Part shown: positions 4,311-43,657 of the stretch, in pieces
Numbering within the stretch: position 1 is the stretch's first letter
Layout of the letters: each line of letters begins with the position of its first letter
NCBI GenBank assembly: GCA_902523535.1
Contig: CABYZQ010000004.1
Location: 39,241 to 103,240, forward strand
Length of the DNA: 64,000 bases
Direction: 5' to 3'
From: an uncultured Pelagibacteraceae bacterium
Lineage (GTDB): Bacteria; Pseudomonadota; Alphaproteobacteria; Pelagibacterales; AG-422-B15
Notes under the pieces: model-generated
Seen by the model: only the letters and a program-made list of their open reading frames with translations
Told to the model about the DNA's origin: nothing
Database searches by the model: none
Made by a program: the position numbers and the translations under genes

Positions 4311-5177
4311 ATGAATATAAATGAAGTTAAGAGTGTTGAGAGTTATTCACTATCCTATAAAGCAATTTTATGTGATCTCTGGGGAGTAATTCATAATGGT
4401 GTTGAAATTTATGCTAGCGCTCTCACTTATCTTGAACGCATGAAGGAGCATGGAATTGATGTTTATTTGATTTCTAATGCCCCTCGTCCTAATTATGTTG
4501 TTCAGGAGGGTTTGACAAATAAACTTGGACTTAATCCCGATCTTTATAAAGATATTTATACCTCTGGAGATATAGGAACGAAGTTTGTTAATAAAAAAAT
4601 TCATGGTGAAAGTTATTTTCATCTAGGCCCAACTAAGGACTATGATCTATTAGAAAATATAAATATTAGTAAGGTAGATAGTATTAATGAGGCAGATTTC
4701 ATTTTAACAACAGGACTTTACGATGACAGTTTTGAAACTCCTAAAGATTATAATGATTTATTTAATGACTTCATTGAGAAAGAAAAACCTATTGTATGTG
4801 TAAATCCTGATGAAATTGTTTATCGAGGATTAAACTCTATTTTTTGTGCTGGAGCTTTAGGCAAATATTATGAAAAACTTGGTGGTAAAGTAGTATATTA
4901 TGGAAAACCATACGTTGAAATTTATGACCAAGCTTTTCAAGATTTGAAAAATATGAATAATATTGAAAATAAGTCAGATATCCTTGCAATCGGGGACAGT
5001 ATCAAAACCGACTGTCTTGGTGCACAAAACTTTAATTTGGATTTTGTCTTTATTATGAATGGTATACATAAGGATCAAATATCAGGTAAAAATAACATTG
5101 AAGATATTAGCAATCTTGTGGAAAATATTCTTTCAAGAGATACAAAAGAAATCACAGTTTCTGATTTTCTAAAGTGA
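4311..5177 (+). CDS. HAD-superfamily hydrolase, subfamily IIA-like
   Basis: 288 aa with the nucleophile motif LCDLWGVIHNG, the later GDSIKTD motif, and a cap region of IIA size. Confidence 0.7.
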   Translation: MNINEVKSVESYSLSYKAILCDLWGVIHNGVEIYASALTYLERMKEHGIDVYLISNAPRPNYVVQEGLTNKLGLNPDLYKDIYTSGDIGTKFVNKKIHGESYFHLGPTKDYDLLENINISKVDSINEADFILTTGLYDDSFETPKDYNDLFNDFIEKEKPIVCVNPDEIVYRGLNSIFCAGALGKYYEKLGGKVVYYGKPYVEIYDQAFQDLKNMNNIENKSDILAIGDSIKTDCLGAQNFNLDFVFIMNGIHKDQISGKNNIEDISNLVENILSRDTKEITVSDFLK

Positions 5178-8958: not shown

Positions 8959-9462
8959 ATGATATATAGGCTTTCTAAATTTTTTTTACTAATATTATTT
9001 TTTTTCGCTTTAGATCAAATAAGTAAAAATATAATTATACAACTTTACAGCATCGATGTTGAAAATTTAAGTTCCCAGTATTTAACCTCAATTAATGAAT
9101 ACATAAATTTATATTTAATTTGGAATAAAGGCTTTGCCTTTGGGTTATTTCAAAATGACATAAGGATTGTAAATAATATTTATATGATTTTAATGGCTGC
9201 AATTATTGTCGTGGTGTTCATTTACGCCTTAACCATTAATAGCAAAGTTTATTATTATGGATTTAGTTTAATAATTGGAGGTGCATTAGGCAATCTTTTT
9301 GATCGTTATCAGTATGCAGCAGTATTGGATTTTATTGACGTGCATTATAATAATTTCCATTGGTATGTATTTAATATTGCTGATATAAATATAACTCTTG
9401 GATGTATCCTAATAATAATTTTAGAATTGTTTTCAAATAGAAAGAAAAAAAATGAAATATAA
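8959..9462 (+). CDS. lspA: Lipoprotein signal peptidase (signal peptidase II)
   Basis: 167 aa and polytopic, with motifs NKGFAFG and FNIAD. It starts immediately after the ileS stop. Confidence 0.85.
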   Translation: MIYRLSKFFLLILFFFALDQISKNIIIQLYSIDVENLSSQYLTSINEYINLYLIWNKGFAFGLFQNDIRIVNNIYMILMAAIIVVVFIYALTINSKVYYYGFSLIIGGALGNLFDRYQYAAVLDFIDVHYNNFHWYVFNIADINITLGCILIIILELFSNRKKKNEI

Positions 9463-10114
9463 AATAACCAGTCGATACTTTCTATTGATAGTTTTTTTTA
9501 TATTTATTTCTTGTTCTAATAATACAGTAAGAGATTATACGTCACTTAAGCAAAAAGCACTAGAAATACCCCCTGACTTTGAGTTATCACCTCCAGTTGT
9601 GAATGATGACTCTGCAAGTGAAGAGCTGCCAAATGAAGAAGTGGTAGAAGATATTGAAGAAATACTAACAAGTGATAATAGTGCGAAAACTAGTGAAAAG
9701 ACTGAGAGTTCATCTTTAGAAGATTTCATTGATAGTAATTTTGTTAATGATGAAAAAGAAGAAGTATCAAATGAAGTAAACACAAATGACGATACTGAAT
9801 CCCTAGACGTTTTGGTAAATGACGACTTACCTGATCAGCCTACTGATGTCGAAAATACAAATGATACAGAAGAGATGATTCAAGATGATCAAGCCCAAAA
9901 TAATGAGTCTCAAGAAACCAATTTTACTGAAGAAAAGTTGCTAGATGAGTTATCAAATGTAGATGATATAACATCGCTTCCAGAAGAAGAGCAGTTGAAG
10001 CCTGAGATTATTGAAGAAGAAGTTTATGACGATCCTACAGTTTACGATGATGACCAAGATTTAAATGATCTATTGAACAGAGTGGATGATTTACTCAACT
10101 CATATTCAAATTAA
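9452..10114 (+). CDS. Acidic lipoprotein of unknown function (possibly DUF3035-like)
   Basis: A signal peptide ends in the lipobox-like FISC. The segment ALEIPPDFELSPPV is followed by about 170 aa extremely rich in D/E/N/S/T. The ORF overlaps the lspA stop by 11 nt. Confidence 0.6.
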   Translation: MKYKITSRYFLLIVFFIFISCSNNTVRDYTSLKQKALEIPPDFELSPPVVNDDSASEELPNEEVVEDIEEILTSDNSAKTSEKTESSSLEDFIDSNFVNDEKEEVSNEVNTNDDTESLDVLVNDDLPDQPTDVENTNDTEEMIQDDQAQNNESQETNFTEEKLLDELSNVDDITSLPEEEQLKPEIIEEEVYDDPTVYDDDQDLNDLLNRVDDLLNSYSN

Positions 10115-10125
10115 ATATTCTATAA

Positions 10126-11121
10126 ATGTTTAAGTTTTTTAGAGATCCAAAATGGTTTTACTGGGCATATATTGGTTCAGCAATTATTTTATCGTCATTA
10201 TGGATTCAGGTACAAATTGACGTAAAAATTAATGAATGGTTTGGTGAATTTTATGACATGATACAAGAGGCGTTGTCAGCTCCTAACGTAATTACTATAG
10301 AAGAATATTGGGCAAGTCTTTTATCATTTATAACTTTAGCTGGCATGTATGTGGCTGTAGCAGTTCTTGTAAGTTATTTTACTAATCATTTTCTATTCAG
10401 GTGGAGAACCGCAATGGTAGAATGGTATCATTCTGTTTATGACAAAGCCCGCAAAATTGAAGGGGCCTCACAGAGAGTCCAAGAAGATACAATTAAATTC
10501 TCAAGAATCATGGAGTCTCTTGGAACGAGTTTGATCGAAGCATTAATGATACTGGTTGAATTTATGCCAATTTTATTTGGCCTGAGCATTGGAATTCCAA
10601 TATTTTTCTTTGGTGAATGGGAATATGGTTTAGTTGTTGGGGCGTTGGTGTGGTCAATTGGTGGTACATTATTTTTAATTATTCTTGGTTTTATTTTAAG
10701 ACTTGTTGGAATCGAATATGATCTTCAAAAACAAGAAGCTGCATATAGGAAAATGCTCGTAATTGCTGAGGACGATGAGACTGTGAGGCCAAAAACTCTT
10801 GAGGAATTGTTCGGTGATGTAAGGCAGATACATTTTCTAAGTTATATAAGATACCTATATTTTGATATTGGCCGTGTTGCATTTTTACAGGCAAATGTTT
10901 TATCAGCGTATGTATTTTTAGCACCCGCAATCGTTGCAGGCGTTGTTACCCTTGGGGTTATGCAGCAGATAATCAGGGCATTTGGAAGAGTTGAGGGATC
11001 AATGCAGTATCTGCTAAAAGCATGGCCTACGATAATTGAGCTCGCAAGTGTTTATAAGAGACTAAGAGAGTTTGAAAGACAAATTGATGAAGTTTTAATT
11101 GAAGAGGAAACTCCTGTATAA
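10126..11121 (+). CDS. SbmA/BacA-like inner-membrane transporter
   Basis: Strong by-eye similarity to E. coli SbmA across FRWRTAM...IEGASQRVQEDT and the EAAYRK...GEDD-like segments. At 331 aa it is shorter at the N-terminus than the roughly 400-aa SbmA. Confidence 0.85.
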   Translation: MFKFFRDPKWFYWAYIGSAIILSSLWIQVQIDVKINEWFGEFYDMIQEALSAPNVITIEEYWASLLSFITLAGMYVAVAVLVSYFTNHFLFRWRTAMVEWYHSVYDKARKIEGASQRVQEDTIKFSRIMESLGTSLIEALMILVEFMPILFGLSIGIPIFFFGEWEYGLVVGALVWSIGGTLFLIILGFILRLVGIEYDLQKQEAAYRKMLVIAEDDETVRPKTLEELFGDVRQIHFLSYIRYLYFDIGRVAFLQANVLSAYVFLAPAIVAGVVTLGVMQQIIRAFGRVEGSMQYLLKAWPTIIELASVYKRLREFERQIDEVLIEEETPV

Positions 11122-11123
11122 AA

Positions 11124-12146
11124 ATGAATTATTCATTCTTAGATTTCGAGAAACTTGAAAAAAAATTCCTTTTATCTAGTGATATCATTTCTCAAAAATT
11201 TGAAAATATTGTTGTTATTGGCTTTGGAGGATCAACGCAAGGCTCAAAAGCTATTAATTCCTTTTTAAATGAAATACGAGTAATTTATATTGATCATTTA
11301 CATTCTGATATTATTGATAAATTAGTCGTAACTTTGAATTTAGAAAAAACAGGGTTCATTTTCATCTCTAAATCTGGCAAAACTTCTGAAACATTATCTA
11401 TTTTTGAGTACTTGATAGACAAATGCAAAAATAAAATAAATATCTCAAATCACTTTTTTTCTTTAACCGAAGATAAACAATCTCAACTTCACGACTTTGC
11501 GTTACAGCACTCAATGAAATCTATTGAGCATGATCCAGATATAGGAGGAAGATTTTCTATATTCAGCAATACATCTCTTATTCCTGGGTTTTATTTTAAT
11601 TCGGATTTGTGCAAAAATTTTCTTGAGGGCGGCAGAGAAGCTATGGAAGAAAAAGGTTTAGCTGAAGATTTGGCCGATCAGTTAAGTCAGTCTATAAAAA
11701 ATAATAAAAATATCGCAGCATATCTTATTTATGGGCATGAATTACTTGAAGTAGGTAATTGGAAAAAACAACTTTTTGCTGAGTCGCTAGGTAAAAATGG
11801 AAAAGGATTTATGCCAGTTGTTTCTGAGATGACAAAAGACCAGCATAGTATTCTTCAATTATTTCTGGACGGGCCAAGGAATGTATTCTTTGAAATCATG
11901 AGTATGGAGAGTGATAAAGTGAATTTAATAAATATGACACTTTCTAACCATATGAGTGCAATGAACGAGACACTTATAAAGCAAGGTCTTAAACCAAGAA
12001 TTTCAATATTTAAGGAGAATGATGTTAAGAAGCTGGGTTTTTATTTTTGTATCGAAATATTAACTGTTATTTTCTTGGCAAAGCTTCTTAATGTAGATCC
12101 TTTTGTTCAGGAAGCTGTCGAACTTCAAAAAAATAATTTAAGTTAG
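11124..12146 (+). CDS. pgi: Phosphoglucose isomerase (PGI/SIS) family protein, unusually short
   Basis: Contains the PGI motifs SKSGKTSET and DIGGRFSIFSNTSLIPG, but is only 340 aa. Confidence 0.55.
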   Translation: MNYSFLDFEKLEKKFLLSSDIISQKFENIVVIGFGGSTQGSKAINSFLNEIRVIYIDHLHSDIIDKLVVTLNLEKTGFIFISKSGKTSETLSIFEYLIDKCKNKINISNHFFSLTEDKQSQLHDFALQHSMKSIEHDPDIGGRFSIFSNTSLIPGFYFNSDLCKNFLEGGREAMEEKGLAEDLADQLSQSIKNNKNIAAYLIYGHELLEVGNWKKQLFAESLGKNGKGFMPVVSEMTKDQHSILQLFLDGPRNVFFEIMSMESDKVNLINMTLSNHMSAMNETLIKQGLKPRISIFKENDVKKLGFYFCIEILTVIFLAKLLNVDPFVQEAVELQKNNLS

Positions 12147-12707: not shown

Positions 12708-13395
12708 ATATTTTGACTTTTTTTAATTTACTTCTCTCTAACGATCCTAATTTATAAGCTCCATAAGATATTCGGATGAGCCGAGTAACAGTTATATTTA
12801 ATGACTCGAAGATATTTCTTATTTCTCTATTCTTACCCTCGAGCAATGACATTTTAATCCAAGAGTAAGTCTTAGTCTTGCTAATGAGGCTTACTTTTAT
12901 AGGCTTATACTTAATATGCTTTATTCTAAGTCCTTTTGATAATCTATCTATGAAATTTTTATCAATAAATCCTTGTACTCTTACCTTGTACACTCTTTCA
13001 AAATTATTTTTGGGTAATTCCATTTTTCTTTTAAATTCTCCGTTATCTGTAAATAGTAATAAACCCTCAGTGTTATAATCTAATCTTCCAATTGATAATA
13101 AATTTTTTTGTTTAGGTCCTAAAAAATCATAAACCGTTTTTCTATTTTTATCATCAGATTTGGTAACTAAGCATCCTCTAGGTTTATGAAAAATATAAAG
13201 TGAATTTAGTTCAGTAATTTTCTTAATTTTAATTATAGTTTCATCAATGCTAATTTTATTACTTGGAGAAACTTTTATTCCTTGTGTAGTCAGTAATTTC
13301 CCATCCACTTTAATACGACCTTCCATAATGAATTTATCAATCTCTCTTCGAGAAAAATTAGTTGATCTTGCGAGAACTTTATTTATTCTTTCCAT
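12694..13395 (-). CDS. rRNA pseudouridine synthase, RsuA/RluB family
   Basis: It has an N-terminal S4 domain, the catalytic GRLD motif (SIGRLDYNTEGLLLFTDNGE), and KVY...V core motifs. Confidence 0.85.
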   Translation of the reverse strand: MERINKVLARSTNFSRREIDKFIMEGRIKVDGKLLTTQGIKVSPSNKISIDETIIKIKKITELNSLYIFHKPRGCLVTKSDDKNRKTVYDFLGPKQKNLLSIGRLDYNTEGLLLFTDNGEFKRKMELPKNNFERVYKVRVQGFIDKNFIDRLSKGLRIKHIKYKPIKVSLISKTKTYSWIKMSLLEGKNREIRNIFESLNITVTRLIRISYGAYKLGSLERSKLKKVKIYENN

Positions 13396-13444
13396 TATTA
13401 TTGTTTAGTTTTTTGAGCAATATTTAAGTTACAATTAAATATTT

Positions 13445-13897
13445 ATGACACAAAATACATTTATGGAACAGGCAATAATAAATGCTTACAAAGGACTAGA
13501 TTTGGGAGAGGTACCAGTCGGTTGTGTGATTGTGAATCAAGATAATAAGATAATCTCCCAATCATATAATAAAGTTATAGCGGATAACGATCCCACTGCT
13601 CATGCTGAGATTAACGCTATAAGGCTAGCATGTGCTTCCTTAAAATCTGAGCGTTTAATCGATTGTAGTGTTTATGTTACTTTAGAGCCTTGTATAATGT
13701 GTGCCGCCGCAATATCGAAATCTAAGTTAAAAAGACTATATTATGGAGCAGATGATATGAATTTTGGTTCTATCAACGGTGGATTTAATTTTTTTCAAAC
13801 AAAAAATTGCAATCATGTGCCAGAGATTTATGATAGTATTTCAAAAATTCAATGTGAGAATTTAATAAACGATTTTTTTAAAGGTAAAAGACCATGA
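13445..13897 (+). CDS. tadA: tRNA-specific adenosine deaminase
   Basis: 150 aa with the CDA zinc motifs HAEINAI and PCIMCAAAI. Confidence 0.9.
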
Positions 13898-15099
13898 CAA
13901 TTTCAGCTAAGGCACAGCAAACAACAGATCGACTAAACACATTTATGGAAAAAAACGTGTATCCAAATAATGATACATATCATAAGCAAATTGAAGACTT
14001 CGGAAATGATCGCTGGCAGGTTGTCCCTATAGTTGAAGATTTAAAAAAAGAAGCAAAAAAAGAGGACCTCTGGAACTTGTTTTTACCAGACAGCGATTTA
14101 GGACATGGACTTTCAAATGCTGAATATGCTCCCATGTGTGAAATAATGGGAAGAGCTATGTGGTCTGCAGAAGTATTTAACTGCTCTGCGCCTGATACAG
14201 GTAATATGGAGGTTCTAGTCAGATACGGAACTGATGAACAGAAAGATAAATATCTTAAACCACTTCTTAATGGCGAAATTCGATCTGCATTTGCAATGAC
14301 AGAACCAGCCGTTGCATCTTCAGATGCAACCAATATTGAAAGTGAGATAAAAAAAGAGGGTAATCAATATGTCTTAAATGGAACAAAATGGTGGACGTCG
14401 GGAGCAATGGATCCAAGATGCCAGTTTTACATTTTTATGGGCAAAACTGATCCTGAGAATGAGAATATTCATAAACAACAGTCCATGATTTTAGTGGATA
14501 AGGATACACCAGGTATTAAAATAAAAAGACACTTACCAGTTTTTGGATTTGACGATGCTCCACACGGGCATGCGGAGGTAGAGTTCAAGGACGTAAAGGT
14601 GCCACCTGAAAATATGTTGTTAGGAGAGGGTAGAGGATTTGAAATCGCTCAAGGCAGACTTGGTCCGGGACGAATTCATCATTGCATGAGAACAATCGGA
14701 CTTGCGGAAGTTGCGCTGGAGGCCATGTGCAAACGATTGATGAGCCGTAAAGCTTTTGGAAAAGAGGTAGTTAGGCATTCTGTGTGGCAAGAAAGAATTG
14801 CAGATGCTCGAATTAATATTGAGATGACAAGACTTTTGACGCTTAAAGCAGCATCAATGATGGATGAGGTAGGTAATAAAGTTGCTAAAAATGAGATAGC
14901 TATGATTAAGGTTGCAGCACCCAATATGGCGCTTAAGATAATAGATGATGCAATCCAAGCCTTTGGAGGCGCAGGAGTCACTACAGATCCAAGATTAGCC
15001 CAAGCTTATGCCGGCATGAGAACGCTACGTTTAGCAGATGGGCCAGATGAAGTTCATAGACTCTCAATCGCTAGAAATGAATTAAAAAAATATCTCTAA
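13894..15099 (+). CDS. Acyl-CoA dehydrogenase family protein, ACAD10/11 (FadE2)-like
   Basis: 401 aa. It has an ACAD fold ([19 protein letters not shown]) and a C-terminal LADGPDEVH in place of the IYEGTxEIQ motif. It overlaps tadA through ATGA. Confidence 0.85.
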
Positions 15100-15258
15100 C
15101 ATTGATAAAAAAAAAGAAGACATTCCAAAAAGACAAGTATGGACGTTACATAAAGTCTAAAGAGTTTGATGTATACTGGGATGAATACCATGAGCTTGAG
15201 GATATCTCGATGAAAGAGTCAGTTAGACAAAAAATTGAAAGAACAAAAAAAATCGAAA

Positions 15259-16503
15259 CTAAAGAATAGTATCTAAAAAATCTATTAGTCTATTTACTTC
15301 CTCAATATTATTATAATGAACCATTGAAACTCTAACCACACCATCATTTGGTTCAATTCCTAATCCCTTCAAACACCTCCATGCATAAAACTCACCATTG
15401 CGAATTCCAATTTGGTTTTTACCTGCAGCTTTTGCAATTTCTAGTGAACTTTTGTCTTTCACAGTAAATGAGACAGTAGGCATTCGTTCACTTCTAGAGT
15501 GAGAAGTTTTGCCAATTAATCGTACATTTTTTTTGAGCTTTAAAAATTCAATAAGTGTTTTGATTAGTGTTTCTTCGTGGTTATAAATTAGCTCAAAAAC
15601 CTTTTTTCCTTTTTCATGAAGGTTCAATCCTTGTTCTGTAAAATGATGACTGTAAAGTGTTTCATAGTAGTCAGTGACTCCAGATAAGCATGCCAATTCC
15701 TCATGGTTTGGGCCGCCTGGGTTCATTGTGTACGGTATCTCTGATGCTAGAAATTCGTGATTCAAGTTTTTAGTTTGATCAAGAAGTTCTTTTTTTCCAT
15801 ATAAAAGGGCTAAATGTGGACCATAAGTTTTGTATAGACTGAACCCATAGAAATCTATGTCTAATTCTTTTAGATCAATAATATCATGTGCCATGTACGC
15901 TACTCCATCACCAACTACTTTTATGTCATGACTATGAGCTATTGAGATTATTTCTTTTAAGTTATTTATTGAAGCCACAACATTTGATGTATGACAGACA
16001 CAAATAAATTTAGTTCTTTTTGTTATTAAATTTTTTAAATCTTCAACTTCAAGTTCAGCACTTTTTGGATTAAACTTCCATTCCTTAATATTAATTCCTT
16101 TTTCCGCAAGTTTCCTCCACGACCCAATATTTGCCTCATGGTCTTGATTGGTTACAATTATTTCATCATCAGTTTTAAGCCAATCCTTAATTGCATTAGA
16201 CAGCAAAAACATATTCATGGTCGTTGATGGACCTATAATAAATTCATTTTTTGAAATATTTAATAGTTCTGCAATTTTCTCTAAGCTGTTATCCATTTCA
16301 TTTCCTGCTTCTATTGATGGACCAAAGTCACCATAAGGTTGAACTTTCTTAGTAATCATAAAATCATTAAGTTTTTCAATTACATGCTTAGGAACATATG
16401 TACCCCCTGCATTTTCAAAGAATGCAAAATCAGCAGTTTTGGGATTTTGAAAAACAGGAAATTGTTTTCTCACAAATTCTATATCTAATATATTTCTACT
16501 CAA
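15259..16503 (-). CDS. Class V aminotransferase-fold PLP enzyme (cysteine desulfurase-like family)
   Basis: 414 aa. The segment FSLYKTYGPH holds the putative PLP lysine, and HTSNV and QDHEAN motifs of the class V fold are present. Confidence 0.75.
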   Translation of the reverse strand: MSRNILDIEFVRKQFPVFQNPKTADFAFFENAGGTYVPKHVIEKLNDFMITKKVQPYGDFGPSIEAGNEMDNSLEKIAELLNISKNEFIIGPSTTMNMFLLSNAIKDWLKTDDEIIVTNQDHEANIGSWRKLAEKGINIKEWKFNPKSAELEVEDLKNLITKRTKFICVCHTSNVVASINNLKEIISIAHSHDIKVVGDGVAYMAHDIIDLKELDIDFYGFSLYKTYGPHLALLYGKKELLDQTKNLNHEFLASEIPYTMNPGGPNHEELACLSGVTDYYETLYSHHFTEQGLNLHEKGKKVFELIYNHEETLIKTLIEFLKLKKNVRLIGKTSHSRSERMPTVSFTVKDKSSLEIAKAAGKNQIGIRNGEFYAWRCLKGLGIEPNDGVVRVSMVHYNNIEEVNRLIDFLDTIL

Positions 16504-16504
16504 A

Positions 16505-17569
16505 TTATTTAATTCCTTCTACAATACTCCAACCGAGCTTACCTAATATTGGAACAAAAGCTTCATAATTTTTAGCCTCTGAGCTTGAAGCAGTTCCATC
16601 TCTTACACGACCCACTATGCCTTGAGCTATTCCTGCAAGTCTAAATATATTATATGCCATATAGAAATCCCAATTATCTATTTTTTCTCTTCCTGTTTTT
16701 TTGTAATAAAGTTCAGCATACTCATTTTCTGAGGGAATATTGAGTGATTTAAGATCCGATCCCATCATTCCTAATCCCTTTGCGCCTGCTGGCAATCTCC
16801 ATGACATCATATGATAAGTAAAATCTGCTATCGGATTTCCTAAAGTAGATAATTCCCAGTCTAATATTGCTTTTACTTCATGAGTTATAGGGTCGAATAT
16901 CATATTGTCCAACCTGAAATCCCCATGAACGATCGTGGTCTCTTGATCGGAAGGTATATTTTTAGGTAACCATTCTATCAATTCATTAATCTCAGGTATC
17001 ATTTGTGTTTCAGAATCTTTGTACTGTTTTGTCCATCTATGAATTTGTCTGTCCATATAATTTTCATGTTTACCGTAATCAGCTAGATTAACTTTATCAA
17101 AATCAACGTTATGTAACTTCGCAATAGTATCATTCATGGATAAGTAAATTTCCCTTCTTTGATTTGGATCGCATCCTGGAAGAAGAAGTTCCCAATAAAT
17201 GTTACCTATGACATGATCCATAATAAAAAAAGATGTACCAATTACTGTTTCATCATCGCAATAACCAAATGTTTCGGGAACAGGAACATCAGTATCATGA
17301 AGAGCTGTTATTACCCTGCATTCTCTATCAACTGCATGAGCGGATTTAAGAAGTTTACCTGGAGGCTTTCTTCTAAGTACAAAATTATTAATATTTGTTT
17401 CAACCAGATAAGTTGGATTTGACTGTCCACCTTTAAATTGTGTTATGTCGCTTATCAGAATATTGTTACCCATAAGTTTTTTTAGATAATCATTTAAAGA
17501 TTCTTTATTAATTTTAAGTTTATCATCAACTTTCTTTGTGCCTGAAAATATTTCATTTCTATCAGTCAT
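16505..17569 (-). CDS. Phosphotransferase (APH/choline-kinase-like) family protein, ACAD10/11 N-terminal-domain type
   Basis: 354 aa with FKGGQSNPTYLV, the Brenner motif HGDFRLDNMIF, and ILDWELSTLGNP. Its start overlaps the purD stop through ATGA. Confidence 0.85.
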   Translation of the reverse strand: MTDRNEIFSGTKKVDDKLKINKESLNDYLKKLMGNNILISDITQFKGGQSNPTYLVETNINNFVLRRKPPGKLLKSAHAVDRECRVITALHDTDVPVPETFGYCDDETVIGTSFFIMDHVIGNIYWELLLPGCDPNQRREIYLSMNDTIAKLHNVDFDKVNLADYGKHENYMDRQIHRWTKQYKDSETQMIPEINELIEWLPKNIPSDQETTIVHGDFRLDNMIFDPITHEVKAILDWELSTLGNPIADFTYHMMSWRLPAGAKGLGMMGSDLKSLNIPSENEYAELYYKKTGREKIDNWDFYMAYNIFRLAGIAQGIVGRVRDGTASSSEAKNYEAFVPILGKLGWSIVEGIK

Positions 17570-18828
17570 GTTAAAGCTTTCTTTCCAATATCTTTTCTAT
17601 AGTACCCCTCAGGCCAGTCTATCGAGTGAATTGAATCATAGATTTTCTTCAAAGCCTCACTAAGTGATGCATTTTTTGACGTTACAGCGAGGACTCTTCC
17701 ACCTGTAGCAATTATTTTTTTATCTTTAATAGCTGTTGCAGCGTGAAATACCTGAAAAGTGTCAGTATTTTCTAACTTATCTATTCCGTTAATTACAGTT
17801 TCTTTCTCAAATGATCCTGGGTATCCATTCGATGCCATTACAACTGTTGCACAATGATCATCTTCCCATTTTAATTCAAAGTCATGTAAATCTTTATCGA
17901 TACAGCTCAGCATAAGTTGAACTATATCACTTTTCATTCTTAGCATTAAAACTTGGCATTCAGGATCTCCAAATCTAATATTATATTCAACAAGTTTTGC
18001 CTTCCCATTTTTAATCATTAGCCCTGCATACAAAATACCTTGATATGGATGACCTAACTCTCTCATGGCATTTAGTGTGGGATATATAATTTCATCATCG
18101 ACTTGTTTTTTAATCTCATCTGTAAAGATAGGAGCAGGTGAGTAGGCTCCCATCCCACCTGTGTTAGGACCAGTATCATTTTCTCCTATGCGTTTATGGT
18201 CTTGAGCACTTTCAAGAGAAATAAACTCAGTACCATCAGTGCATACAAAGTAACTCGCTTCTTCACCTTCCATAAATTCTTCAATGACTGCGGACATATT
18301 TATTCCAAATTTATTTTCAAAAATTTCCTTCAGAGCTTTTTCAGCCATTTCAAAACTGTCTGCGACTGTCACTCCTTTTCCGGCAGCTAATCCATTTGCT
18401 TTTACTACAATTGGCAAACTTTGTTTTTTTAAGTATTTGACTGCGTCTTCGTAGTTATCAAAAGTAGAATAGGCAGCTGTTGGAATAGAATAATTTTTGC
18501 AAAGATCTTTCATAAAGCTCTTTGATCCTTCAAGTTGGGATGCGTATTTATTTGGACCAAATATTTTAATATTTTTTGATACAAAATAATCCACTATTCC
18601 CGCAACTAATGGAACCTCAGGTCCAACTACAATTAAATCAATAAATTTTTCGACACAATATGAATGAATAGAGTTAAAATCATCAAGATCTAAATCTTTA
18701 CATTCTGCTAGTAGACTTATTCCATAATTCCCAGGAGCACAAAATAGTGATGTAGCCAAAGGACTTCTTGATATTGCATAGCATAGAGAATGCTCCCTAG
18801 CTCCATTTCCAAGTACAAGAATTTTCAT
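17566..18828 (-). CDS. purD: Phosphoribosylamine-glycine ligase
   Basis: 420 aa with the N-terminus MKILVLGNGAREH and ATP-grasp core motifs (GPNTGGMGAYSP). Confidence 0.95.
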   Translation of the reverse strand: MKILVLGNGAREHSLCYAISRSPLATSLFCAPGNYGISLLAECKDLDLDDFNSIHSYCVEKFIDLIVVGPEVPLVAGIVDYFVSKNIKIFGPNKYASQLEGSKSFMKDLCKNYSIPTAAYSTFDNYEDAVKYLKKQSLPIVVKANGLAAGKGVTVADSFEMAEKALKEIFENKFGINMSAVIEEFMEGEEASYFVCTDGTEFISLESAQDHKRIGENDTGPNTGGMGAYSPAPIFTDEIKKQVDDEIIYPTLNAMRELGHPYQGILYAGLMIKNGKAKLVEYNIRFGDPECQVLMLRMKSDIVQLMLSCIDKDLHDFELKWEDDHCATVVMASNGYPGSFEKETVINGIDKLENTDTFQVFHAATAIKDKKIIATGGRVLAVTSKNASLSEALKKIYDSIHSIDWPEGYYRKDIGKKALT

Positions 18829-18879
18829 AAAGTAAAATTTAAATTAATTGATATATTAGCATATAAGGAATTAAATTAA

Positions 18880-20181
18880 ATGGTTAGAGAAAATATCCAA
18901 GAGTACTCAGTTTCAGAAATTTCAGACTCTATAAAGGGAACTCTTGAAAACAGTTTTGGCTACGTAAAAGTTAGAGGGGAAGTCTCGGGTTTAAGTAAGC
19001 CAGCGTCAGGCCACATATATTTAAATTTAAAAGATGATAAGGCAGTTATAAAAGCAATAATCTGGCGAAGTGCAGCAGCAAGAATTAGTTTTGTACCCGA
19101 AGATGGATTAGAAGTTATTTGTTCAGGTAAGCTCACAACGGGATATTCTGATCGATACCCGGGGAGATCAGATTATTCAATTATAGTTGATTCAATAACT
19201 CCTGCAGGAGAGGGAGCTTTAATGGCTCTTTTAGAGCAACGTAAGAAAAAGCTTGTGGCTGAGGGTTTATTTGATGAGCAAAATAAGAAAAGTCTACCAA
19301 AGTATCCTGAAACGATTGGTATAGTCACATCTCCAACAGGTGCAGTTATAAAAGATATACTTCATAGATTAAATGAGAGGTTTCCATGCAATGTCATTCT
19401 ATGGCCTGTTCCAGTTCAGGGCCAAGATGCGGCTCAGTTAATTTCTGATGCAGTAGATGGATTTAATAATTTATCGAGTAAAGACGAAGTAAATATACCA
19501 AACCTTATTATCATAGCACGTGGTGGGGGCAGTATAGAAGACCTTTGGCCTTTCAATGAAGAAATTGTAATCAGGTCTGTCTTCAAAAGTAATATTCCTA
19601 TTGTATCTGCAATTGGTCATGAAACAGATACCACACTAATTGATTTTGTTTCTGACTTAAGAGCACCAACGCCTACAGCTGCAGCAGAAATTTCTACCCC
19701 AGATAAAGAAGAACTTTTGAGGGATATCAGTGAAAAAAATAATCGTCTAAATTATTCAATAAATTTATACCTTGATAATCTTAAAGACAATTTCATTTCA
19801 ATAAAAGATAAATTGCCTGTTTCACTAAAACTTTTTCTAAATAATCTTACTTCTCATTTTCAAAATATTTCTCAATCACTTAATTTTCGTGTTATCGGTG
19901 AGCAATTAAAGAGCAGTAAAGTAAAACTCATTTCTTTAGAGGAGTCTCTATTGAAAGCAAAAAATATTTTGGTAGAGAGGCTTCAAAAAGAATTAGATAA
20001 TAAAAGTACACTCCTTGAAAGCTTGAGTTATAAATCTGTTTTAAAAAGAGGGTACTCAGTTACAAGGAGTTCAAATAAAATAATCAAATCAAAAAAAGAT
20101 TTAAAAGATGAAAGTGAGTTGATCATAGAAACTAATTTTGCTACTTTAAAAGCCAAACTTAGAGAAATTAATGACAAATAG
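18880..20181 (+). CDS. xseA: Exodeoxyribonuclease VII large subunit
   Basis: 433 aa with an OB-fold N-terminus (VKVRGEVSG...SGHIYLNLKD) and ARGGGSIEDLWPFNEE. Confidence 0.9.
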   Translation: MVRENIQEYSVSEISDSIKGTLENSFGYVKVRGEVSGLSKPASGHIYLNLKDDKAVIKAIIWRSAAARISFVPEDGLEVICSGKLTTGYSDRYPGRSDYSIIVDSITPAGEGALMALLEQRKKKLVAEGLFDEQNKKSLPKYPETIGIVTSPTGAVIKDILHRLNERFPCNVILWPVPVQGQDAAQLISDAVDGFNNLSSKDEVNIPNLIIIARGGGSIEDLWPFNEEIVIRSVFKSNIPIVSAIGHETDTTLIDFVSDLRAPTPTAAAEISTPDKEELLRDISEKNNRLNYSINLYLDNLKDNFISIKDKLPVSLKLFLNNLTSHFQNISQSLNFRVIGEQLKSSKVKLISLEESLLKAKNILVERLQKELDNKSTLLESLSYKSVLKRGYSVTRSSNKIIKSKKDLKDESELIIETNFATLKAKLREINDK

Positions 20182-34459: not shown

Positions 34460-35590
34460 ATGAACTTTGACTTTTCAGATGATCAAAAGCTTTTGCGCGA
34501 TCAAGCTAGAAAGTTTTTACAAGATAAATGCGACCGTAAGTCTGTAAGAAGTATTCTAGAAGATAATCAGAAAAACTATGATGCTGATCTTTGGTCTCAA
34601 ATTTCTGAATTAGGTTGGACTGGTACTGCAATACCTGAAGAATATGGAGGACTTGGTCTAGGTATGTTGGAATTATGTGTAATAGCTGAAGAGCTAGGCA
34701 GAGCTCTTGCGCCTACACCATTTTCTTCTTCGATATATATCTTTGCTGAATTTTTAAAATCGTATGGTACGGATGAACAAAAGAAAAAATATTTACCACA
34801 CATTGCATCAGGTGAAAAAATTGGGACATTTGCTTTATCAGAAACTAATGGTAAACCAAAACCCAACAACATCAGGACACAGCATGCTTCAGGTAAAATA
34901 AATGGATCTAAAAATCCCGTTTCTGATGGAGAGTCAGCAGACTATATCATTGTTGCAGCAAATTCTGATAGTAATTCAAATTATAATTCTCTCTCACTTT
35001 TTATTATTGATAGAAATGATCCAGGCTTAAATATTTCAAACTTAGACACCATCGATCCCACGAGACCATCTTGCGCATTAGATTTGAAAAATGTTGCATG
35101 TGAAAGACTCGGAGACGAAGGAAGTGGCTGGGAGATGATTGATAATATTTTTAATAGAGCAGCTGTTTTATTCTCTTTCGAGCAAGTGGGTGGGGCACAA
35201 GTCTCACTTGATGAAGCAAAAAAATATTCACTTGAGCGATTCGCTTTTGGAAAGCAGATAGGTGCATTTCAAGCTTTAAAGCATAAGATGGCGGACATGT
35301 ATGTCAAAATTGAATTAGCAAGATCTAATGCCTACTATGGTGCCTGGGCACTAAGCACAGATTCAAATGAATTGCCAATTGCCGCTGCTGGTGCAAGGGT
35401 GAGTGCCTCGGAAGCTTACAATTACGCGTCTCAGGAAAATATTCAAATACATGGAGGTGTTGGTTTTACTTGGGAATATGACTGCCACTTGTTTTATCGT
35501 AGATCCAAACTACTTTCTTTAAATATTGGTAGTATTCGTCAGTGGAAAGAAAATTTAATTTCAAATCTTGAAAAAAGGAATATAGTTTAA
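34460..35590 (+). CDS. Acyl-CoA dehydrogenase family protein (pair 1, small-subunit-like)
   Basis: 376 aa with an ACAD fold (QIHGGVGFTWEYD). The position aligned to the MCAD-type catalytic Glu in IYEGT reads LNIGS. Confidence 0.85.
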   Translation: MNFDFSDDQKLLRDQARKFLQDKCDRKSVRSILEDNQKNYDADLWSQISELGWTGTAIPEEYGGLGLGMLELCVIAEELGRALAPTPFSSSIYIFAEFLKSYGTDEQKKKYLPHIASGEKIGTFALSETNGKPKPNNIRTQHASGKINGSKNPVSDGESADYIIVAANSDSNSNYNSLSLFIIDRNDPGLNISNLDTIDPTRPSCALDLKNVACERLGDEGSGWEMIDNIFNRAAVLFSFEQVGGAQVSLDEAKKYSLERFAFGKQIGAFQALKHKMADMYVKIELARSNAYYGAWALSTDSNELPIAAAGARVSASEAYNYASQENIQIHGGVGFTWEYDCHLFYRRSKLLSLNIGSIRQWKENLISNLEKRNIV

Positions 35591-35592
35591 AA

Positions 35593-36876
35593 ATGGATTT
35601 TAACGACACACCTCAAGAAGCTGAATTTAGAAAAAAAGTAAGATCTTTTCTAGAAGCCAATGCAGAAAAAAGATCTACTCTAGCCGCAAAGCCAAAGGGT
35701 GATGCAGGATCTTCTATTTCAAGTGCTGGAGCGCCAGAAACTGTAAAAGGTGAAGATGCTGCAAAGGTAGCGCTAGACAATGCTAAAGAATGGCAAAGAA
35801 AAAAAGCTGATGCTGGATTTGCTGCTATTCTATGGCCAAAGGAATTCGGAGGTTACGGAGGAACACCTATAGAGCAAGTTATATATGCTCAAGAAGAACA
35901 CGACTACTTTGTACACTCAGGATATTTTGAAATTGGAATAGGCATGCTTGGGCCAACCATGATGGCTTGGGGCAAAGATGAAGATAAAAAAAGATTTCTA
36001 CCGAAAATGATTACAGGCGAAGAAATTTGGTGCCAATTATTTTCTGAACCGTCAGCAGGATCAGATTTAGCTGGTATAAGAATGAAGGCAGAAAAAGACG
36101 GTGATGAATGGGTATTAAACGGTCAAAAGGTTTGGACTTCAGGAGCTCATTTTGCCGATTATGGAATGATTGTAGCACGATCTGATCCTACTGCCTTAAA
36201 ACATAAGGGACTTACTTATTTTTATGTTGATATGAAAACACCAGGAATTGAAGCTAAGCCTATTAAGCAAATTTCTGGTTCAGCTAATTTCAATGAAGTT
36301 TTCTTTAATGACGTTCGTATACCTGACAGTCAAAGAATTGGCGCAGAGGGTGACGGGTGGAAAGTGTCACTTACTACTCTAATGAATGAAAGATTAGCGG
36401 TAGGAGATCCTCCAGGCTTGGATTTCGACCAAATTTTTGAAGCCTCTAAAGAAATTGAAGTTGAAGATGGTCTTGCTGTAAAAAATAGTGAAGTAAGACA
36501 AAAGATGGCTGACTGGTACATTCAATCTCGCGGTTTGCAATATACGAAATACAGAAGCATGACCGCTTTATCAAAAGGTCAAACGCCAGGACCAGAGCTC
36601 TCAATAAGTAAACTAGTCACAGCATCAAAAATGCAAGATGTATCGTCTTATGCTCTGGATTTGATGGACATGTCAGGTATGGTTCACCAAGATAAAAATC
36701 CAATTCTTAAAAACTTATTCCAAAACGGCTATTTTTTCTCTGCTGCCATGAGAATTGCTGGTGGTACTGACGAAGTTTTAAGAAATATTATTGCGGAGCG
36801 AGTCCTAGGGCTACCACAAGATGAAAGGTCAGATAAAAAACTGCCTTTCAATGAGTTACCGTCTGGTAAAAACTAA
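35593..36876 (+). CDS. Acyl-CoA dehydrogenase family protein (pair 1, large-subunit-like)
   Basis: 427 aa with FSEPSAGSDLAG and WTSGAHFADY. The C-terminal IAGGTDEVLRNIIAERVLG has Gly where MCAD has Glu. It starts 2 nt after the preceding ACAD. Confidence 0.85.
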   Translation: MDFNDTPQEAEFRKKVRSFLEANAEKRSTLAAKPKGDAGSSISSAGAPETVKGEDAAKVALDNAKEWQRKKADAGFAAILWPKEFGGYGGTPIEQVIYAQEEHDYFVHSGYFEIGIGMLGPTMMAWGKDEDKKRFLPKMITGEEIWCQLFSEPSAGSDLAGIRMKAEKDGDEWVLNGQKVWTSGAHFADYGMIVARSDPTALKHKGLTYFYVDMKTPGIEAKPIKQISGSANFNEVFFNDVRIPDSQRIGAEGDGWKVSLTTLMNERLAVGDPPGLDFDQIFEASKEIEVEDGLAVKNSEVRQKMADWYIQSRGLQYTKYRSMTALSKGQTPGPELSISKLVTASKMQDVSSYALDLMDMSGMVHQDKNPILKNLFQNGYFFSAAMRIAGGTDEVLRNIIAERVLGLPQDERSDKKLPFNELPSGKN

Positions 36877-39434: not shown

Positions 39435-39514
39435 AAAACATAGTCATCCACACGTGATCGGGATAATCATTTGGGCACAATTTGTTTGCGGTGACTTCAA
39501 ACTGGAGGCAAAAC

Positions 39515-41806: not shown

Positions 41807-41830
41807 GTATAAAACGTTATAAAAAATAGC

Positions 41831-43616: not shown

Positions 43617-43657
43617 AATTTTTGACATTTTAGCTAGCAGTATATAGGACTACCCCC

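Follow-up and report, generated by a model that had tools for sequence, protein, structure and literature searches.

The convergent kinase and acyl-CoA dehydrogenase (ACAD) genes in the stretch of DNA analyzed here (64 kb, hereafter the window), which shares 99–100% identity with the Pelagibacteraceae SAG AG-894-A11 (SAR11), very probably are the SAR11 orthologues of a bacterial two-gene module for a 4-hydroxyacyl-CoA route, the components of which are fused in ACAD10 and ACAD11 and correspond to LvaA and LvaC in Pseudomonas putida. Our analysis establishes the homology of both proteins to this module, the conservation of the key residues and the linkage of the two genes across proteobacterial classes. 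An earlier note, based on inspection of the sequence, had described separate homologues of the two halves of ACAD10/11 and suggested an Lva-like route; residue conservation and gene linkage both favor this prediction. In animals, the fused kinase and flavoenzyme of ACAD10/11 make 4-hydroxy fatty acids accessible to the usual breakdown of fats. The split arrangement is already known and has been tested in other bacteria, and in this respect the SAR11 pair is not new biology; what sets it apart from the ordinary members is a SAR11-only gene for a protein of 55 aa.

Sequence and Structural Affinities of the Kinase and the Dehydrogenase

The kinase gene (16505..17569, minus strand) encodes a 354-aa protein of the APH fold (Pfam APH, 175 bits) that contains the motifs FKGGQSNPTYLV, HGDFRLDNMIF and LDWELSTLGNP, the ACAD10/11 signatures that the earlier note had recognized. 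Among proteins of solved structure, the best match is 3dxp (349 bits), followed by the kinase domain of mouse ACAD11 (249 bits; 40.1% identity over 302 positions) and 9o56 (171 bits), with the rest at 40 bits or less. The NCBIfam models for APH(3′) (39 bits against a cut-off of 205) and homoserine kinase (20 bits) both score far under their cut-offs. Judged by sequence, the kinase is of the ACAD10/11 type (LvaA-like), with a similarity far beyond chance, and its place is among these domains and apart from the kinases of aminoglycosides, choline or homoserine; the predicted activity is that of a 4-hydroxyacyl-CoA 4-kinase.

The ACAD gene (13894..15099, plus strand) encodes a 401-aa FAD enzyme of the acyl-CoA dehydrogenase fold (Pfam Acyl-CoA_dh_N/M/1) and the ACAD10/11/LvaC type. 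The top PDB matches are 4hr3 from Mycobacterium abscessus (437 bits) and mouse and human ACAD11 (431 bits each; 53.6% identity over 392 positions with the mouse protein), whereas all canonical ACADs score at most 147 bits (MCAD and SCAD ~145 bits or less); the similarity to ACAD10/11 is again far beyond chance. The motif LADGPDEVH and its Asp (D382), with which the protein had been said to end, are indeed present, but at residues 380–388, 13 residues short of the C-terminus. Within SAR11, the ACAD is the best-conserved gene of the locus (86–94% identity vs. 56–70% for purD, tadA, and xseA) and is under strong purifying selection. It is predicted to catalyze phosphate elimination from 4-phosphoacyl-CoA, yielding 2-enoyl-CoA.

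The functional residues named for ACAD11 (D220, N225, R176, R626, H634, R637, and D753; PMC12440821) are retained throughout. In the kinase, D220, N225 and R176 correspond to D217, N222 and R174, which are invariant in an alignment of 10 family members; the catalytic D217 and N222 lie in the motif HGDFRLDN, the metal-binding DWE is D237–E239, R174 is the CoA-contact residue, and the β3 Lys is replaced by Arg (VLRRKP). In the ACAD, R626, H634, R637 and D753 correspond to the cluster R255/H263/R266 and to D382. Across both proteins, 7 of 8 published residues thus map one-to-one, the exception being R86, which has no match by number (the −1 shift suiting all the others leads to a Phe); the Arg beside the αC Glu (DRE; R82/E83) is nonetheless conserved.

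Linkage of the Two Genes and Organization of the Locus

The 3′ ends of the convergent genes are separated by 1405 nt, as the earlier description of two genes 1.4 kb apart on opposite strands had it. This arrangement is kept in 6/6 SAR11 loci (L001–L005 and L091), and an ACAD lies within 10 kb of the kinase in 6 of 7 SAR11-like loci. Among 49 non-SAR11 proteobacterial kinase loci with adequate flanks, 21 contain an ACAD11-type ACAD within a 10-kb radius (7 adjacent and co-directional, 10 convergent downstream, and 4 in other arrangements); in the other 28, such a gene was not found within this distance and may lie elsewhere in the genomes. The pair is co-directional and adjacent in Beta- and Gammaproteobacteria, and convergent within a block of the form xseA | purD-kinase ... 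ACAD-tadA in Alphaproteobacteria; at locus L093, the two genes even overlap convergently. Adjacency in three proteobacterial classes, in differing orientations, is better explained by selection than by synteny that was passively kept. Homologues of lvaABCD have previously been noted in the same three classes (PMC6692424).

On the ACAD side, tadA (13445..13897, plus strand; tRNA adenosine-34 deaminase, with MafB19-deam/dCMP_cyt_deam_1 domains and a score of 136 bits to NF008113 that is below the cut-off of 150) directly precedes the ACAD with an overlap of 4 nt. The same pairing is found in Ferrovibrio, Sneathiella, Parvibaculaceae, L093 and others, so that tadA is a conserved alphaproteobacterial neighbor of the ACAD. 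On the kinase side, purD (17566..18828, minus strand; phosphoribosylamine-glycine ligase, TIGR00877 505 bits, Pfam GARS_N/A/C) lies directly upstream with a 4-nt ATGA overlap (...gctttaacATGActgat). Every SAR11-like locus has purD upstream of the kinase and on its strand, as do 25 of the 49 non-SAR11 loci. This adjacency is an old alphaproteobacterial feature, with no evident functional link. The overlap with purD, which the earlier note read as translational coupling, and the 1-nt spacing between the kinase and a gene for a PLP enzyme, to which it also drew attention, are real but functionally uninformative in a genome with a coding fraction of 96%: of the 42 pairs of genes that share a strand in the window, 26 are separated by 10 nt or less, and the median gap is 5.5 nt. 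The purD and tadA overlaps probably reflect genome streamlining of the ancient alphaproteobacterial synteny block.

Predicted Pathway and Alternative Functions

From the characterized homologues, we infer the enzyme activities of the SAR11 pair, along with the length of the acyl chain and the substrate met in the environment. An acyl-CoA synthetase or transferase from elsewhere in the genome would first join a 4-hydroxy acid to CoA as a thioester. The 4-hydroxyl of this 4-hydroxyacyl-CoA would then be phosphorylated by the kinase at the expense of ATP, with D217 as the catalytic base, N222 and D237 as Mg2+ ligands, and contacts to CoA made by R174 and the Arg of DRE. The resulting 4-phosphoacyl-CoA would be bound by the FAD enzyme through R255/H263/R266, and D382 and FAD would carry out redox-neutral α,β-oxidation, phosphate elimination and re-reduction, with release of 2-enoyl-CoA, an ordinary β-oxidation intermediate. 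For this pair, we found neither an acyl-CoA synthetase gene nor an adjacent LvaD-like reductase, the 64-kb window containing only two SDR genes, at distances of 9 and 27 kb.

It seems unlikely, although it is the best of the alternatives, that the kinase works without the ACAD and has as its physiological substrate a glycerolipid (1-O-alkyl- or 1-O-acylglycerol) or some other small alcohol, the proximity of the two genes in SAR11 being inherited synteny. The kinase domains of Caenorhabditis elegans and human ACAD10/11 and several prokaryotic homologues are reported to act as 1-O-alkyl-/1-O-acylglycerol kinases in vitro, an activity that is stimulated by acetyl-CoA, and the dehydrogenase domain is dispensable for ether-lipid salvage (2026 preprint, PMC13596139). 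Moreover, 17 of 26 purD-linked kinase loci lack an ACAD within 10 kb, none was found in the ~3.9 kb of contig downstream of the kinase in the SAR11-like locus L092, and a kinase paralogue on a Sulfitobacter plasmid has a histidine phosphatase, but no ACAD11-type ACAD, beside it; such loci suggest that the kinase may also act without the ACAD. Ether lipids, however, are not known as a trait of SAR11. Against independent action also stands the co-resident ACAD, in which both the catalytic Asp and the R/H/R cluster for phosphate recognition are intact and which hence needs a phosphorylated acyl-CoA, for which the kinase is the only evident supplier. The recurrence of the adjacency in three classes in varied orientations, the conservation of the CoA-contact residue R176 and the position of the kinase family in acyl-CoA catabolic operons on plasmids, with β-oxidation genes (SDR, ACAD, enoyl-CoA hydratase, thiolase, and acyl-CoA synthetase) as neighbors, point in the same direction.

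Considerably less probable is that no joint pathway exists, the ACAD being a conventional FadE2-like enzyme for unsubstituted or branched acyl-CoAs and the kinase an unrelated one that acts on a small molecule or an antibiotic. The public annotation of the pair ("acyl-CoA dehydrogenase family protein" and "aminoglycoside phosphotransferase") and the four further ACAD genes in the window, indicative of a generally rich acyl-CoA metabolism, would fit such a combination, and truncated ACAD11 has been suggested to accommodate long-chain unsubstituted acyl-CoAs (earlier work, as cited in PMC12440821). In a head-to-head assay, however, ACAD10/11 were inactive on classical substrates (PMC12440821); furthermore, neither the diagnostic Asp nor the R/H/R cluster has been lost, the ACAD is linked to the kinase across classes, and the kinase falls far short of the APH(3′) cut-off.

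[quoted passage not shown]

The larger of these (15259..16503, minus strand) encodes a 414-aa class-V PLP enzyme of the "cysteine desulfurase-like" kind (Pfam Aminotran_5, 181 bits); its TIGR01976/VC1184-like assignment (308 bits) is below the cut-off of 352. Database proteins that are 98–100% identical at full coverage are also 414 aa long. In PDB, the enzyme is closest to FGM3 (229 bits) and UstD (186 bits), SufS matching at ~125 bits in the N-terminal part only. SufS carries the motif RxGHHC at its catalytic Cys; the aligned position reads RNGEFY, without the Cys, so that the protein is not an ordinary desulfurase.

The earlier note had offered, as an alternative, a kinase and PLP phospho-lyase pair comparable to hydroxylysine kinase and its phospho-lyase. 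The kinase would then act on a hydroxy-amino compound, and the PLP enzyme would eliminate the phosphate, as 5-phosphohydroxylysine phospho-lyase does. Although the TTG start of the PLP gene lies one base past the kinase stop codon TAA on the same strand, the same gene order recurs in L001–L005, for a total of six SAR11 genomes with the window, and the SufS-type Cys is missing, this is the least probable reading of all: the gene is absent from 77/77 non-SAR11 kinase loci and, despite the same synteny, from the SAR11-like loci L091 and L092 (79 loci altogether), L091 largely refuting it; the homologues at 55–61% identity occur in unrelated neighborhoods without a kinase; the adjacency is uninformative given the many short gaps and the collinearity of the entire 16-kb region among SAR11 genomes; and known phospho-lyases are class-III aminotransferases, the Pfam domain of which was not found in this UstD/FGM3-like class-V enzyme. 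The pattern of absences indicates a recent insertion. [quoted passage not shown]

The smaller gene (15102..15269, plus strand) is unannotated, occupies what had appeared to be a 159-nt gap after the ACAD, and was missed by the earlier note. Its TTG start is 2 nt past the ACAD stop codon and its 3′ end overlaps the 3′ end of the PLP gene by 11 nt; the product is a 55-aa micro-protein (6.9 kDa, pI 9.3). The gene is real and under purifying selection: the product is conserved at 60–98% identity in L001–L005, dN is 0.15–0.34 with dS saturated (dN/dS 0.13–0.27 where computable), and both other frames contain stops. Among 1.84 billion proteins, only 19 representatives, all of 49–112 aa, are related to it, with the shared motif KDxYG..FDxYWDxY..LSxKESxRQ, and the family is restricted to SAR11-like genomes. 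The gene also occurs in L091, where there is no PLP gene, and has been retained in L092, where it stands beside the kinase although no ACAD was found nearby. An AF2 model (pLDDT 87.7) consists of a β-hairpin and one long helix, and no match was found in Pfam or PDB. The micro-protein gene is a SAR11-specific companion of the kinase-ACAD module and possibly an accessory of it.

Comparison with Known Systems

A close and experimentally tested parallel is Burkholderia pseudomallei, where the split orthologues of ACAD10 (kinase Q63VL0 and the adjacent ACAD), which like the SAR11 proteins are separate ACAD10/11-clade polypeptides, can each stand in for the corresponding domain of ACAD10 in vitro (PMC11342911). 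The SAR11 kinase is 49–55% identical to kinases encoded directly upstream of an ACAD11-type ACAD in Burkholderiales and other Beta- and Gammaproteobacterial loci, and an LvaB-sized gene between kinase and ACAD is absent from both arrangements. In Burkholderiales, the genes are co-directional, with the kinase first and the ACAD 17–190 nt downstream, whereas in SAR11 they are convergent within the purD/tadA block and separated by the micro-protein gene and, in the subclade of the window, the PLP gene.

The lva operon of P. putida encodes the LvaA kinase, its 12-kDa partner LvaB, the LvaC ACAD, the LvaD reductase and the LvaE CoA ligase; LvaA(B)/LvaC perform the same chemistry as ACAD10/11 (PMC11342911, PMC12440821), and LvaC has the catalytic Asp and active-site cluster common to ACAD10/11. 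LvaA, which requires LvaB, is a distant member, with 29% identity to the ACAD10/11 kinase domains (PMC11342911). The SAR11 pair would follow the same two-step logic, from 4-hydroxyacyl-CoA via 4-phosphoacyl-CoA to enoyl-CoA, but no equivalents of lvaD, lvaE or lvaR were found next to it. At 55 aa, the SAR11 micro-protein has half the length of LvaB, and its gene comes after that of the ACAD rather than that of the kinase.

The PLP enzyme resembles UstD, an Aspergillus decarboxylative aldolase, and FGM3 from Fusarium over the full length, all three being class-V "cysteine desulfurase-like" proteins; FGM3 also lacks the Cys at the SufS position. Both are fungal secondary-metabolism enzymes, whereas the bacterial TIGR01976 family is uncharacterized.

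Two stand-alone bacterial proteins of solved structure from other organisms belong to the same clades as the SAR11 pair, namely 3dxp from Cupriavidus pinatubonensis, a kinase labeled "putative acyl-CoA dehydrogenase," and 4hr3, likewise labeled; they are the best solved matches for the SAR11 kinase and ACAD, respectively, and their depositors assigned no function. Mammalian ACAD10 and ACAD11 (PDB 8v3u, 8v3v, 2wbi) are fused single polypeptides with organelle targeting signals, in contrast to the separate SAR11 genes on opposite strands. ACAD10 has an additional N-terminal HAD phosphatase domain; the HAD genes of the window (4311–5177 and 45761–46420), which resemble a TIGR01459-type hydrolase and phosphoglycolate phosphatase, are ~9 and ~28 kb away from the pair, not adjacent to it. 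Across these differences in organization, the SAR11 proteins retain 40% identity to the kinase and 54% identity to the ACAD domain of the mammalian enzymes.

A split ACAD10/11-type pair

Homology, residue conservation and genomic linkage, all observed directly here, agree that the kinase and dehydrogenase halves of the eukaryotic fusion proteins ACAD10 and ACAD11 are present in the window as separate nearby genes, as proposed in the earlier note. The window belongs to SAR11, given that an unbroken run of six proteins, from xseA to tadA, shows 99-100% identity with those of the Pelagibacteraceae single-cell genome AG-894-A11 (CABYDZ010000001.1, locus L003); its G+C content is ~33%, and 96% of it is coding.

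The kinase gene (16505-17569, minus strand) encodes a 354-aa protein of the APH family (Pfam APH, 175 bits) that contains FKGGQSNPTYLV, HGDFRLDNMIF and LDWELSTLGNP. Among PDB sequences, it matches 3dxp, a Cupriavidus protein mislabeled 'putative acyl-CoA dehydrogenase' (349 bits), the kinase domain of mouse ACAD11 (245-249 bits; 40.1% identity over 302 positions) and 9o56, presumably the structure of the C. thermarum enzyme (171 bits), with the remainder scoring at most 40 bits. Of the NCBIfam models, the one for APH(3') yields 39 bits (cut-off 205) and the one for homoserine kinase 20 bits (cut-off 271); Pfam Choline_kinase yields 20 bits, again under the cut-off. By comparison of scores, the protein groups with the ACAD10/11 kinase domains and not with aminoglycoside, choline or homoserine kinases. 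The protein has the motifs HGD217FRLDN222, D237-W-E239 and VLRRKP, the last with Arg for the beta3 Lys, and none of them varies in the family alignment (the HxDxxxxN, DWE and beta3 Lys-to-Arg motifs are as defined in PMC12440821 and PMC13596139). In ACAD11, the catalytic D220 is supported by N225, and R86 and R176 contact CoA (Rashan et al., PMC12440821). These residues were transferred through HMMER alignments at an offset of -1, because the PDB chain lacks Met1. The window kinase conserves D220 as D217, N225 as N222 and R176 as R174; R86 lands on a Phe at this offset, and a conserved Arg adjoins the alphaC Glu (D-R82-E83). The beta3 Arg, alphaC Glu, Asp, Asn and DWE are common to the window kinase and the C. 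thermarum homolog.

The dehydrogenase gene (13894-15099, plus strand) encodes a 401-aa protein with the three-domain ACAD fold (Acyl-CoA_dh_N, Acyl-CoA_dh_M and Acyl-CoA_dh_1, each over the Pfam cut-off) and with LADGPDEVH at residues 380-388. Against PDB sequences, it reaches 431 bits with both the mouse and the human ACAD11 and 437 bits with M. abscessus 4hr3, compared to 141-147 bits for the best canonical ACADs (FadE3, MCAD and SCAD); identity to mouse ACAD11 is 53.6% over 392 positions. In the ACAD domain of ACAD11, the cluster R626/H634/R637, on a helix proposed to bind the 4-phosphate, adjoins the catalytic D753 (Rashan et al., PMC12440821). All four residues are conserved as R255, H263, R266 and D382, the first three within a 15-residue stretch identical to ACAD11. 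The presence of Asp in place of the MCAD-type Glu, read originally from the sequence, holds up, with D382 of LADGPDEVH aligning with D753. In a pairwise comparison with the PimC-like canonical ACAD of the window, the D382 column falls on a position of a Y-x-G-[ST] motif, and MCAD carries its catalytic Glu at that column (YEGT).

The two genes lie on opposite strands in convergent orientation, with 1405 nt between their 3' ends, and the interval contains the gene of a PLP enzyme (15259-16503, minus strand) and a 55-aa ORF (15102-15269, plus strand) but no other gene. Upstream of the kinase, the TGA of purD (17566-18828, minus strand) overlaps the kinase ATG as ATGA; downstream, the kinase TAA is followed by one base and the TTG start of the PLP ORF. 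The earlier note had described these junctions correctly, as it had everything else it read from the sequence, and had taken the first as translational coupling. The overlap was rejected as a sign of functional coupling between purD and the kinase on the spacing statistics of the whole window, in which gaps between same-strand genes have a median of 5.5 nt, 26 of 42 are no longer than 10 nt and six pairs overlap; tight spacing here is no evidence of a functional link. A promoter and terminator scan of 13300-19000 is uninformative on transcription units, because promoter-like sites (19) are no more common than in shuffled sequences (23 ± 5.5) and terminators were not found in this interval. The entire region is collinear among SAR11 genomes.

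Linkage of the kinase and dehydrogenase genes across genomes

A single scan of the GTDB species-representative genomes with the kinase alignment yielded 80 loci which, together with two metagenomic/SAG contigs, were searched with the window proteins. The order xseA, purD-kinase-PLP, ACAD-tadA is kept in all five close SAR11 loci. Among the 77 other loci, 49 were usable (at least 1.5 kb upstream and at least 6 kb downstream of the kinase), and a flanking gene was called ACAD11-type at 45% identity or more (mostly 59-73%). An ACAD lies within 10 kb of the kinase in six of seven SAR11-like loci and in 21 of the 49 others; the chance that a specific single-copy gene falls within 10 kb of another is estimated at ~1% or less in genomes of this size. 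The expectation that the two genes co-occur across genomes was thus borne out. In seven of the 21 linked loci, the genes are adjacent and co-directional (Burkholderiales, Nevskia, Solimonas and other Beta/Gammaproteobacteria), an arrangement also seen on short-flank contigs of these groups, including Casimicrobiaceae; in ten, the ACAD is convergent and 0.8-4.7 kb downstream of the kinase, and four are otherwise arranged.

Of the 49 loci, 25 have purD immediately upstream of the kinase and co-directional with it, mostly at a distance of 46-220 nt (Sneathiellales, Ferrovibrio, Parvibaculales, Caulobacterales, Hyphomonadaceae and Hyphomicrobiales), and tadA often precedes the ACAD in Alphaproteobacteria. 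The same synteny occurs in a 47% G+C alphaproteobacterium (L093), where the kinase and ACAD genes overlap convergently. The purD-kinase/ACAD-tadA synteny is deep and ancient in Alphaproteobacteria; despite the purD-kinase adjacency in the window and among loci L007-L081, no functional link between purine synthesis and the kinase is evident. In the single-cell assembly GCA_902531895.1 (L002, 8739-10004), purD is split into two ORFs of 224 and 196 aa, either by a frameshift or by a sequencing error.

[quoted passage not shown] Tandem APH paralogs with 33-48% identity to the window kinase are found directly downstream of the purD-linked kinase in several Alphaproteobacteria (L013, at 11072-12139, L014, L015, L019, L009, L022 and L028). 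The Ferrovibrio DUF2817 gene (L013, 13914-15002, minus strand; M14/succinylglutamate-desuccinylase-like) is directly downstream of the ACAD; the DUF2817 gene of the window (59746-60852, plus strand) is 45 kb away from the locus. In four loci (L036, L059, L068 and L079), tadA comes right after the kinase and the ACAD is missing.

Among annotated plasmids, 215 records carry the kinase family and 127 carry the ACAD type, and the plasmid kinases are typically located inside beta-oxidation-type operons, as in Acinetobacter soli pGFJ1, where the order is SDR, ACAD with RIYDGPTEVH, kinase, enoyl-CoA hydratase, thiolase and acyl-CoA synthetase. On a Sulfitobacter pontiacus plasmid (NZ_CP081117.1; L089, 1045-8023), a kinase paralog with 46% identity shares its operon with two SDRs, a thiolase, a histidine phosphatase and ACADs that are PimC/D-like; an ACAD11-type ACAD is absent. 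The histidine phosphatase recalls the P. citronellolis lva cluster, in which such an enzyme replaces LvaB.

Predicted function of the pair

It is likely that the pair performs ACAD10/11/Lva chemistry. The kinase is predicted to catalyze ATP-dependent 4-O-phosphorylation of 4-hydroxyacyl-CoA, leaving the free acid untouched, and the ACAD would then eliminate the phosphate in an FAD-dependent, redox-neutral reaction, converting 4-phosphoacyl-CoA to 2-enoyl-CoA; both activities are predictions, as are chain length and substrate source. The weak points of this pathway reading are that Pfam and NCBIfam scans of candidate ORFs detected no AMP-binding enzyme or acyl-CoA synthetase gene in the 64-kb window, that no reductase adjoins the pair (the SDR genes of the window are 9 and 27 kb off the locus), and that many alphaproteobacterial kinase loci, those of Caulobacter and Hyphomonas included, have no nearby ACAD.

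A recent preprint reports that the kinase domains of ACAD10/11 and several prokaryotic homologs phosphorylate 1-O-alkylglycerols and acylglycerols in vitro (2026; PMC13596139), and the real substrate of the window kinase might accordingly be an alkylglycerol or acylglycerol rather than a 4-hydroxyacyl-CoA. We consider this quite improbable for the SAR11 enzyme, against which stands the phosphate-recognition cluster retained in the co-resident ACAD: an enzyme with this cluster would need a phosphoacyl-CoA, and only the window kinase is positioned as the supplier. The variation among loci, with or without the ACAD, with the micro-protein described below, or with tandem kinase paralogs, offers natural 'experiments' that bear on the dispute over the kinase substrate.

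SAR11, generally considered the most abundant heterotroph of the ocean, has a streamlined genome of ~1.3 Mb. The pair is retained in SAR11 under strong purifying selection, within a synteny block common to many Alphaproteobacteria. The maintenance of the pair under such selection in a streamlined genome suggests that 4-hydroxy acids matter in seawater, whether they supply carbon or impose a burden of detoxification. Possible sources include lipid-peroxidation products, lactones, 4-hydroxybutyrate and 4-hydroxyvalerate.

The PLP enzyme gene

The gene adjacent to the kinase encodes a 414-aa class V PLP enzyme (Aminotran_5). The best NCBIfam match, TIGR01976 ('cysteine desulfurase-like'), yields 308 bits against a cut-off of 352, and the SufS-family models yield 189 against 475. 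The closest solved relatives over the full length are the fungal enzymes FGM3 (229 bits) and UstD (186 bits); similarity to SufS is confined to the N-terminal 240 residues (~125 bits). The SufS motif is RxGHHC, and the position of this catalytic-Cys loop is occupied by RNGEFY in the PLP enzyme and by RWGHFF in FGM3. With no Cys in the aligned loop and scores under the family cut-offs, a cysteine desulfurase (SufS/CsdA/IscS) is rejected. The bacterial family TIGR01976/VC1184 is uncharacterized. UstD, a decarboxylative aldolase, couples a PLP-enamine with aldehydes to produce gamma-hydroxy amino acids (PMC11976203).

The earlier note had offered an alternative in which the kinase and the PLP enzyme form a kinase/phospho-lyase pair, analogous to hydroxylysine kinase and its phospholyase. 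This alternative is not supported, because a pair of the hydroxylysine kinase/PHYKPL type requires a phospho-lyase of the class-III aminotransferase fold and co-occurrence of the two genes, whereas the enzyme here is of class V and its gene occurs in none of the 77 non-SAR11 kinase loci and in neither of the SAR11-like contigs L091 and L092. The decisive case is L091 (30% G+C), which preserves the gene order of the window from DUF2093 to ileS, with a kinase and an ACAD that are 70% and 90% identical to those of the window and only 170 nt apart, and lacks the PLP gene. Moreover, PLP homologs with 55-61% identity in other marine Alphaproteobacteria have no kinase neighbor in any case; their neighbors encode a class-II aldolase, an aldehyde dehydrogenase, a GBBH/TauD-type dioxygenase and an HpcH/HpaI aldolase. 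Thus, the absence of the PLP gene from the 77 loci and L091, along with the lack of kinase neighbors for its homologs, points to a recent insertion in one SAR11 subclade.

In MarineAlpha5-type Alphaproteobacteria, a homolog with 55-57% identity is part of a conserved cluster (L083, 2509-7962; L084, 2593-8046; L085, 2553-7248) together with a GBBH-like_N/TauD dioxygenase, an aldehyde dehydrogenase and a class-II aldolase, joined by an HpcH/HpaI aldolase in L083 and L084. The combination recalls the metabolism of hydroxylated amino acids, of carnitine-type compounds or of 4-hydroxy-2-oxo acids.

A conserved SAR11 micro-protein

The 159-nt stretch after the ACAD, overlooked in the earlier note, is a real gene. 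This unannotated ORF (15102-15269, plus strand) encodes a 55-aa protein (6.9 kDa, pI 9.3), starts 2 nt past the ACAD stop and overlaps the 3' end of the PLP gene with its own 3' end by 11 nt. It is conserved at the protein level in all SAR11 loci (60-98% identity), with stops in both other frames, dN of 0.15-0.34, saturated dS, and dN/dS of 0.13-0.27 where computable; the micro-protein is under purifying selection. HMMER, run exhaustively over 1.84 billion representative proteins, recovered only 19 relatives, all of 49-112 aa, which share the motif KDxYG...FDxYWDxY...LSxKESxRQKxER. Searches of Pfam and of PDB sequences returned nothing significant (best E = 0.061 and 0.07, respectively), and AlphaFold2 models the protein as a beta-hairpin that leads into a single long helix (mean pLDDT 87.7). 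The gene was not found in the non-SAR11 loci and is restricted to SAR11-like genomes.

The micro-protein gene is older than the PLP insertion, since L091 has it and lacks the PLP gene. Unrelated genes come after purD-kinase in L092, with no ACAD or tadA in the ~3.9 kb of contig available downstream, and the micro-protein gene is still located 3 nt past the kinase stop. Such retention may indicate a connection with the kinase, recalling LvaB, but could equally be an accident of a rearrangement breakpoint. The conserved micro-protein is a candidate accessory: the presence of its gene beside a kinase without the ACAD in L092, and its precedence over the PLP insertion, would fit a three-part SAR11 module in which the basic micro-protein is a lineage-specific subunit of the kinase and/or the ACAD, LvaB-like in function, although we regard this possibility as rather doubtful. 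A bolder extension of the same reading, by analogy with the gamma-hydroxy (4-hydroxy) amino acids made by UstD, is that the PLP enzyme might have been recruited into the locus to couple aldehyde/gamma-hydroxy-amino-acid chemistry to the 4-hydroxyacyl-CoA route.

Other genes of the window

The window, which covers 64 kb of a streamlined genome, contains five genes of the ACAD family. Two tandem ACAD pairs (34460-36876 and 42414-44836, both plus strand) are pimeloyl-CoA dehydrogenase-like (PimC/PimD large and small subunits; scores below cut-offs). After the first comes a gene for a TauE/SafE exporter (36887-37738), and after the second come an SDR gene (44849-45751, minus strand) and a phosphoglycolate-phosphatase-like HAD gene (45761-46420, minus strand). 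Directly upstream of the second pair are genes for a 774-aa TonB-dependent receptor (39482-42346, plus strand), probably an unusual gene type for SAR11, and then a DUF6580 protein. A predicted 220-aa lipoprotein (9452-10114, plus strand) has a signal peptide ending in Cys and an extremely acidic, low-complexity body rich in D, E, N and S.

Comparison with known systems

A complete P. putida-type lva operon (lvaABCDE and a regulator) can be rejected for this locus, as LvaD and LvaE are not adjacent to the pair. The HAD hydrolases of the window, which resemble a TIGR01459-type HAD-IIA hydrolase and phosphoglycolate phosphatase, were rejected as the missing phosphatase domain of ACAD10, being ~9 and 28 kb from the pair. 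Our literature search found no papers tying SAR11 or Pelagibacter to ACAD11 or 4-hydroxybutyrate.

In P. putida, LvaA, which requires the 12-kDa LvaB, phosphorylates 4-hydroxyvaleryl-CoA and LvaC eliminates the phosphate, and ACAD10 and ACAD11 perform the same chemistry with fused domains (PMC12440821, PMC11342911). Separate B. pseudomallei orthologs can replace either domain of ACAD10 in vitro (Paquay et al., PMC11342911), and a passage of PMC6692424 notes lvaABCD homologs in Alpha-, Beta- and Gammaproteobacteria. Given these precedents, the existence of the ACAD10/11 halves as separate bacterial genes is established knowledge. Both the biochemistry, in which 4-hydroxy acids enter beta-oxidation via 4-phosphoacyl-CoA, and its encoding by two genes being known already, the contribution of the present analysis is mainly one of context, and the residual interest lies in the retention of the pair in the minimal SAR11 genome, the purD-kinase/ACAD-tadA synteny, the SAR11-specific micro-protein and the variation of the locus. 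Alongside the Lva proteins of P. putida, the B. pseudomallei orthologs and the fused eukaryotic enzymes, the SAR11 pair adds one more case to the already known two-gene biology.
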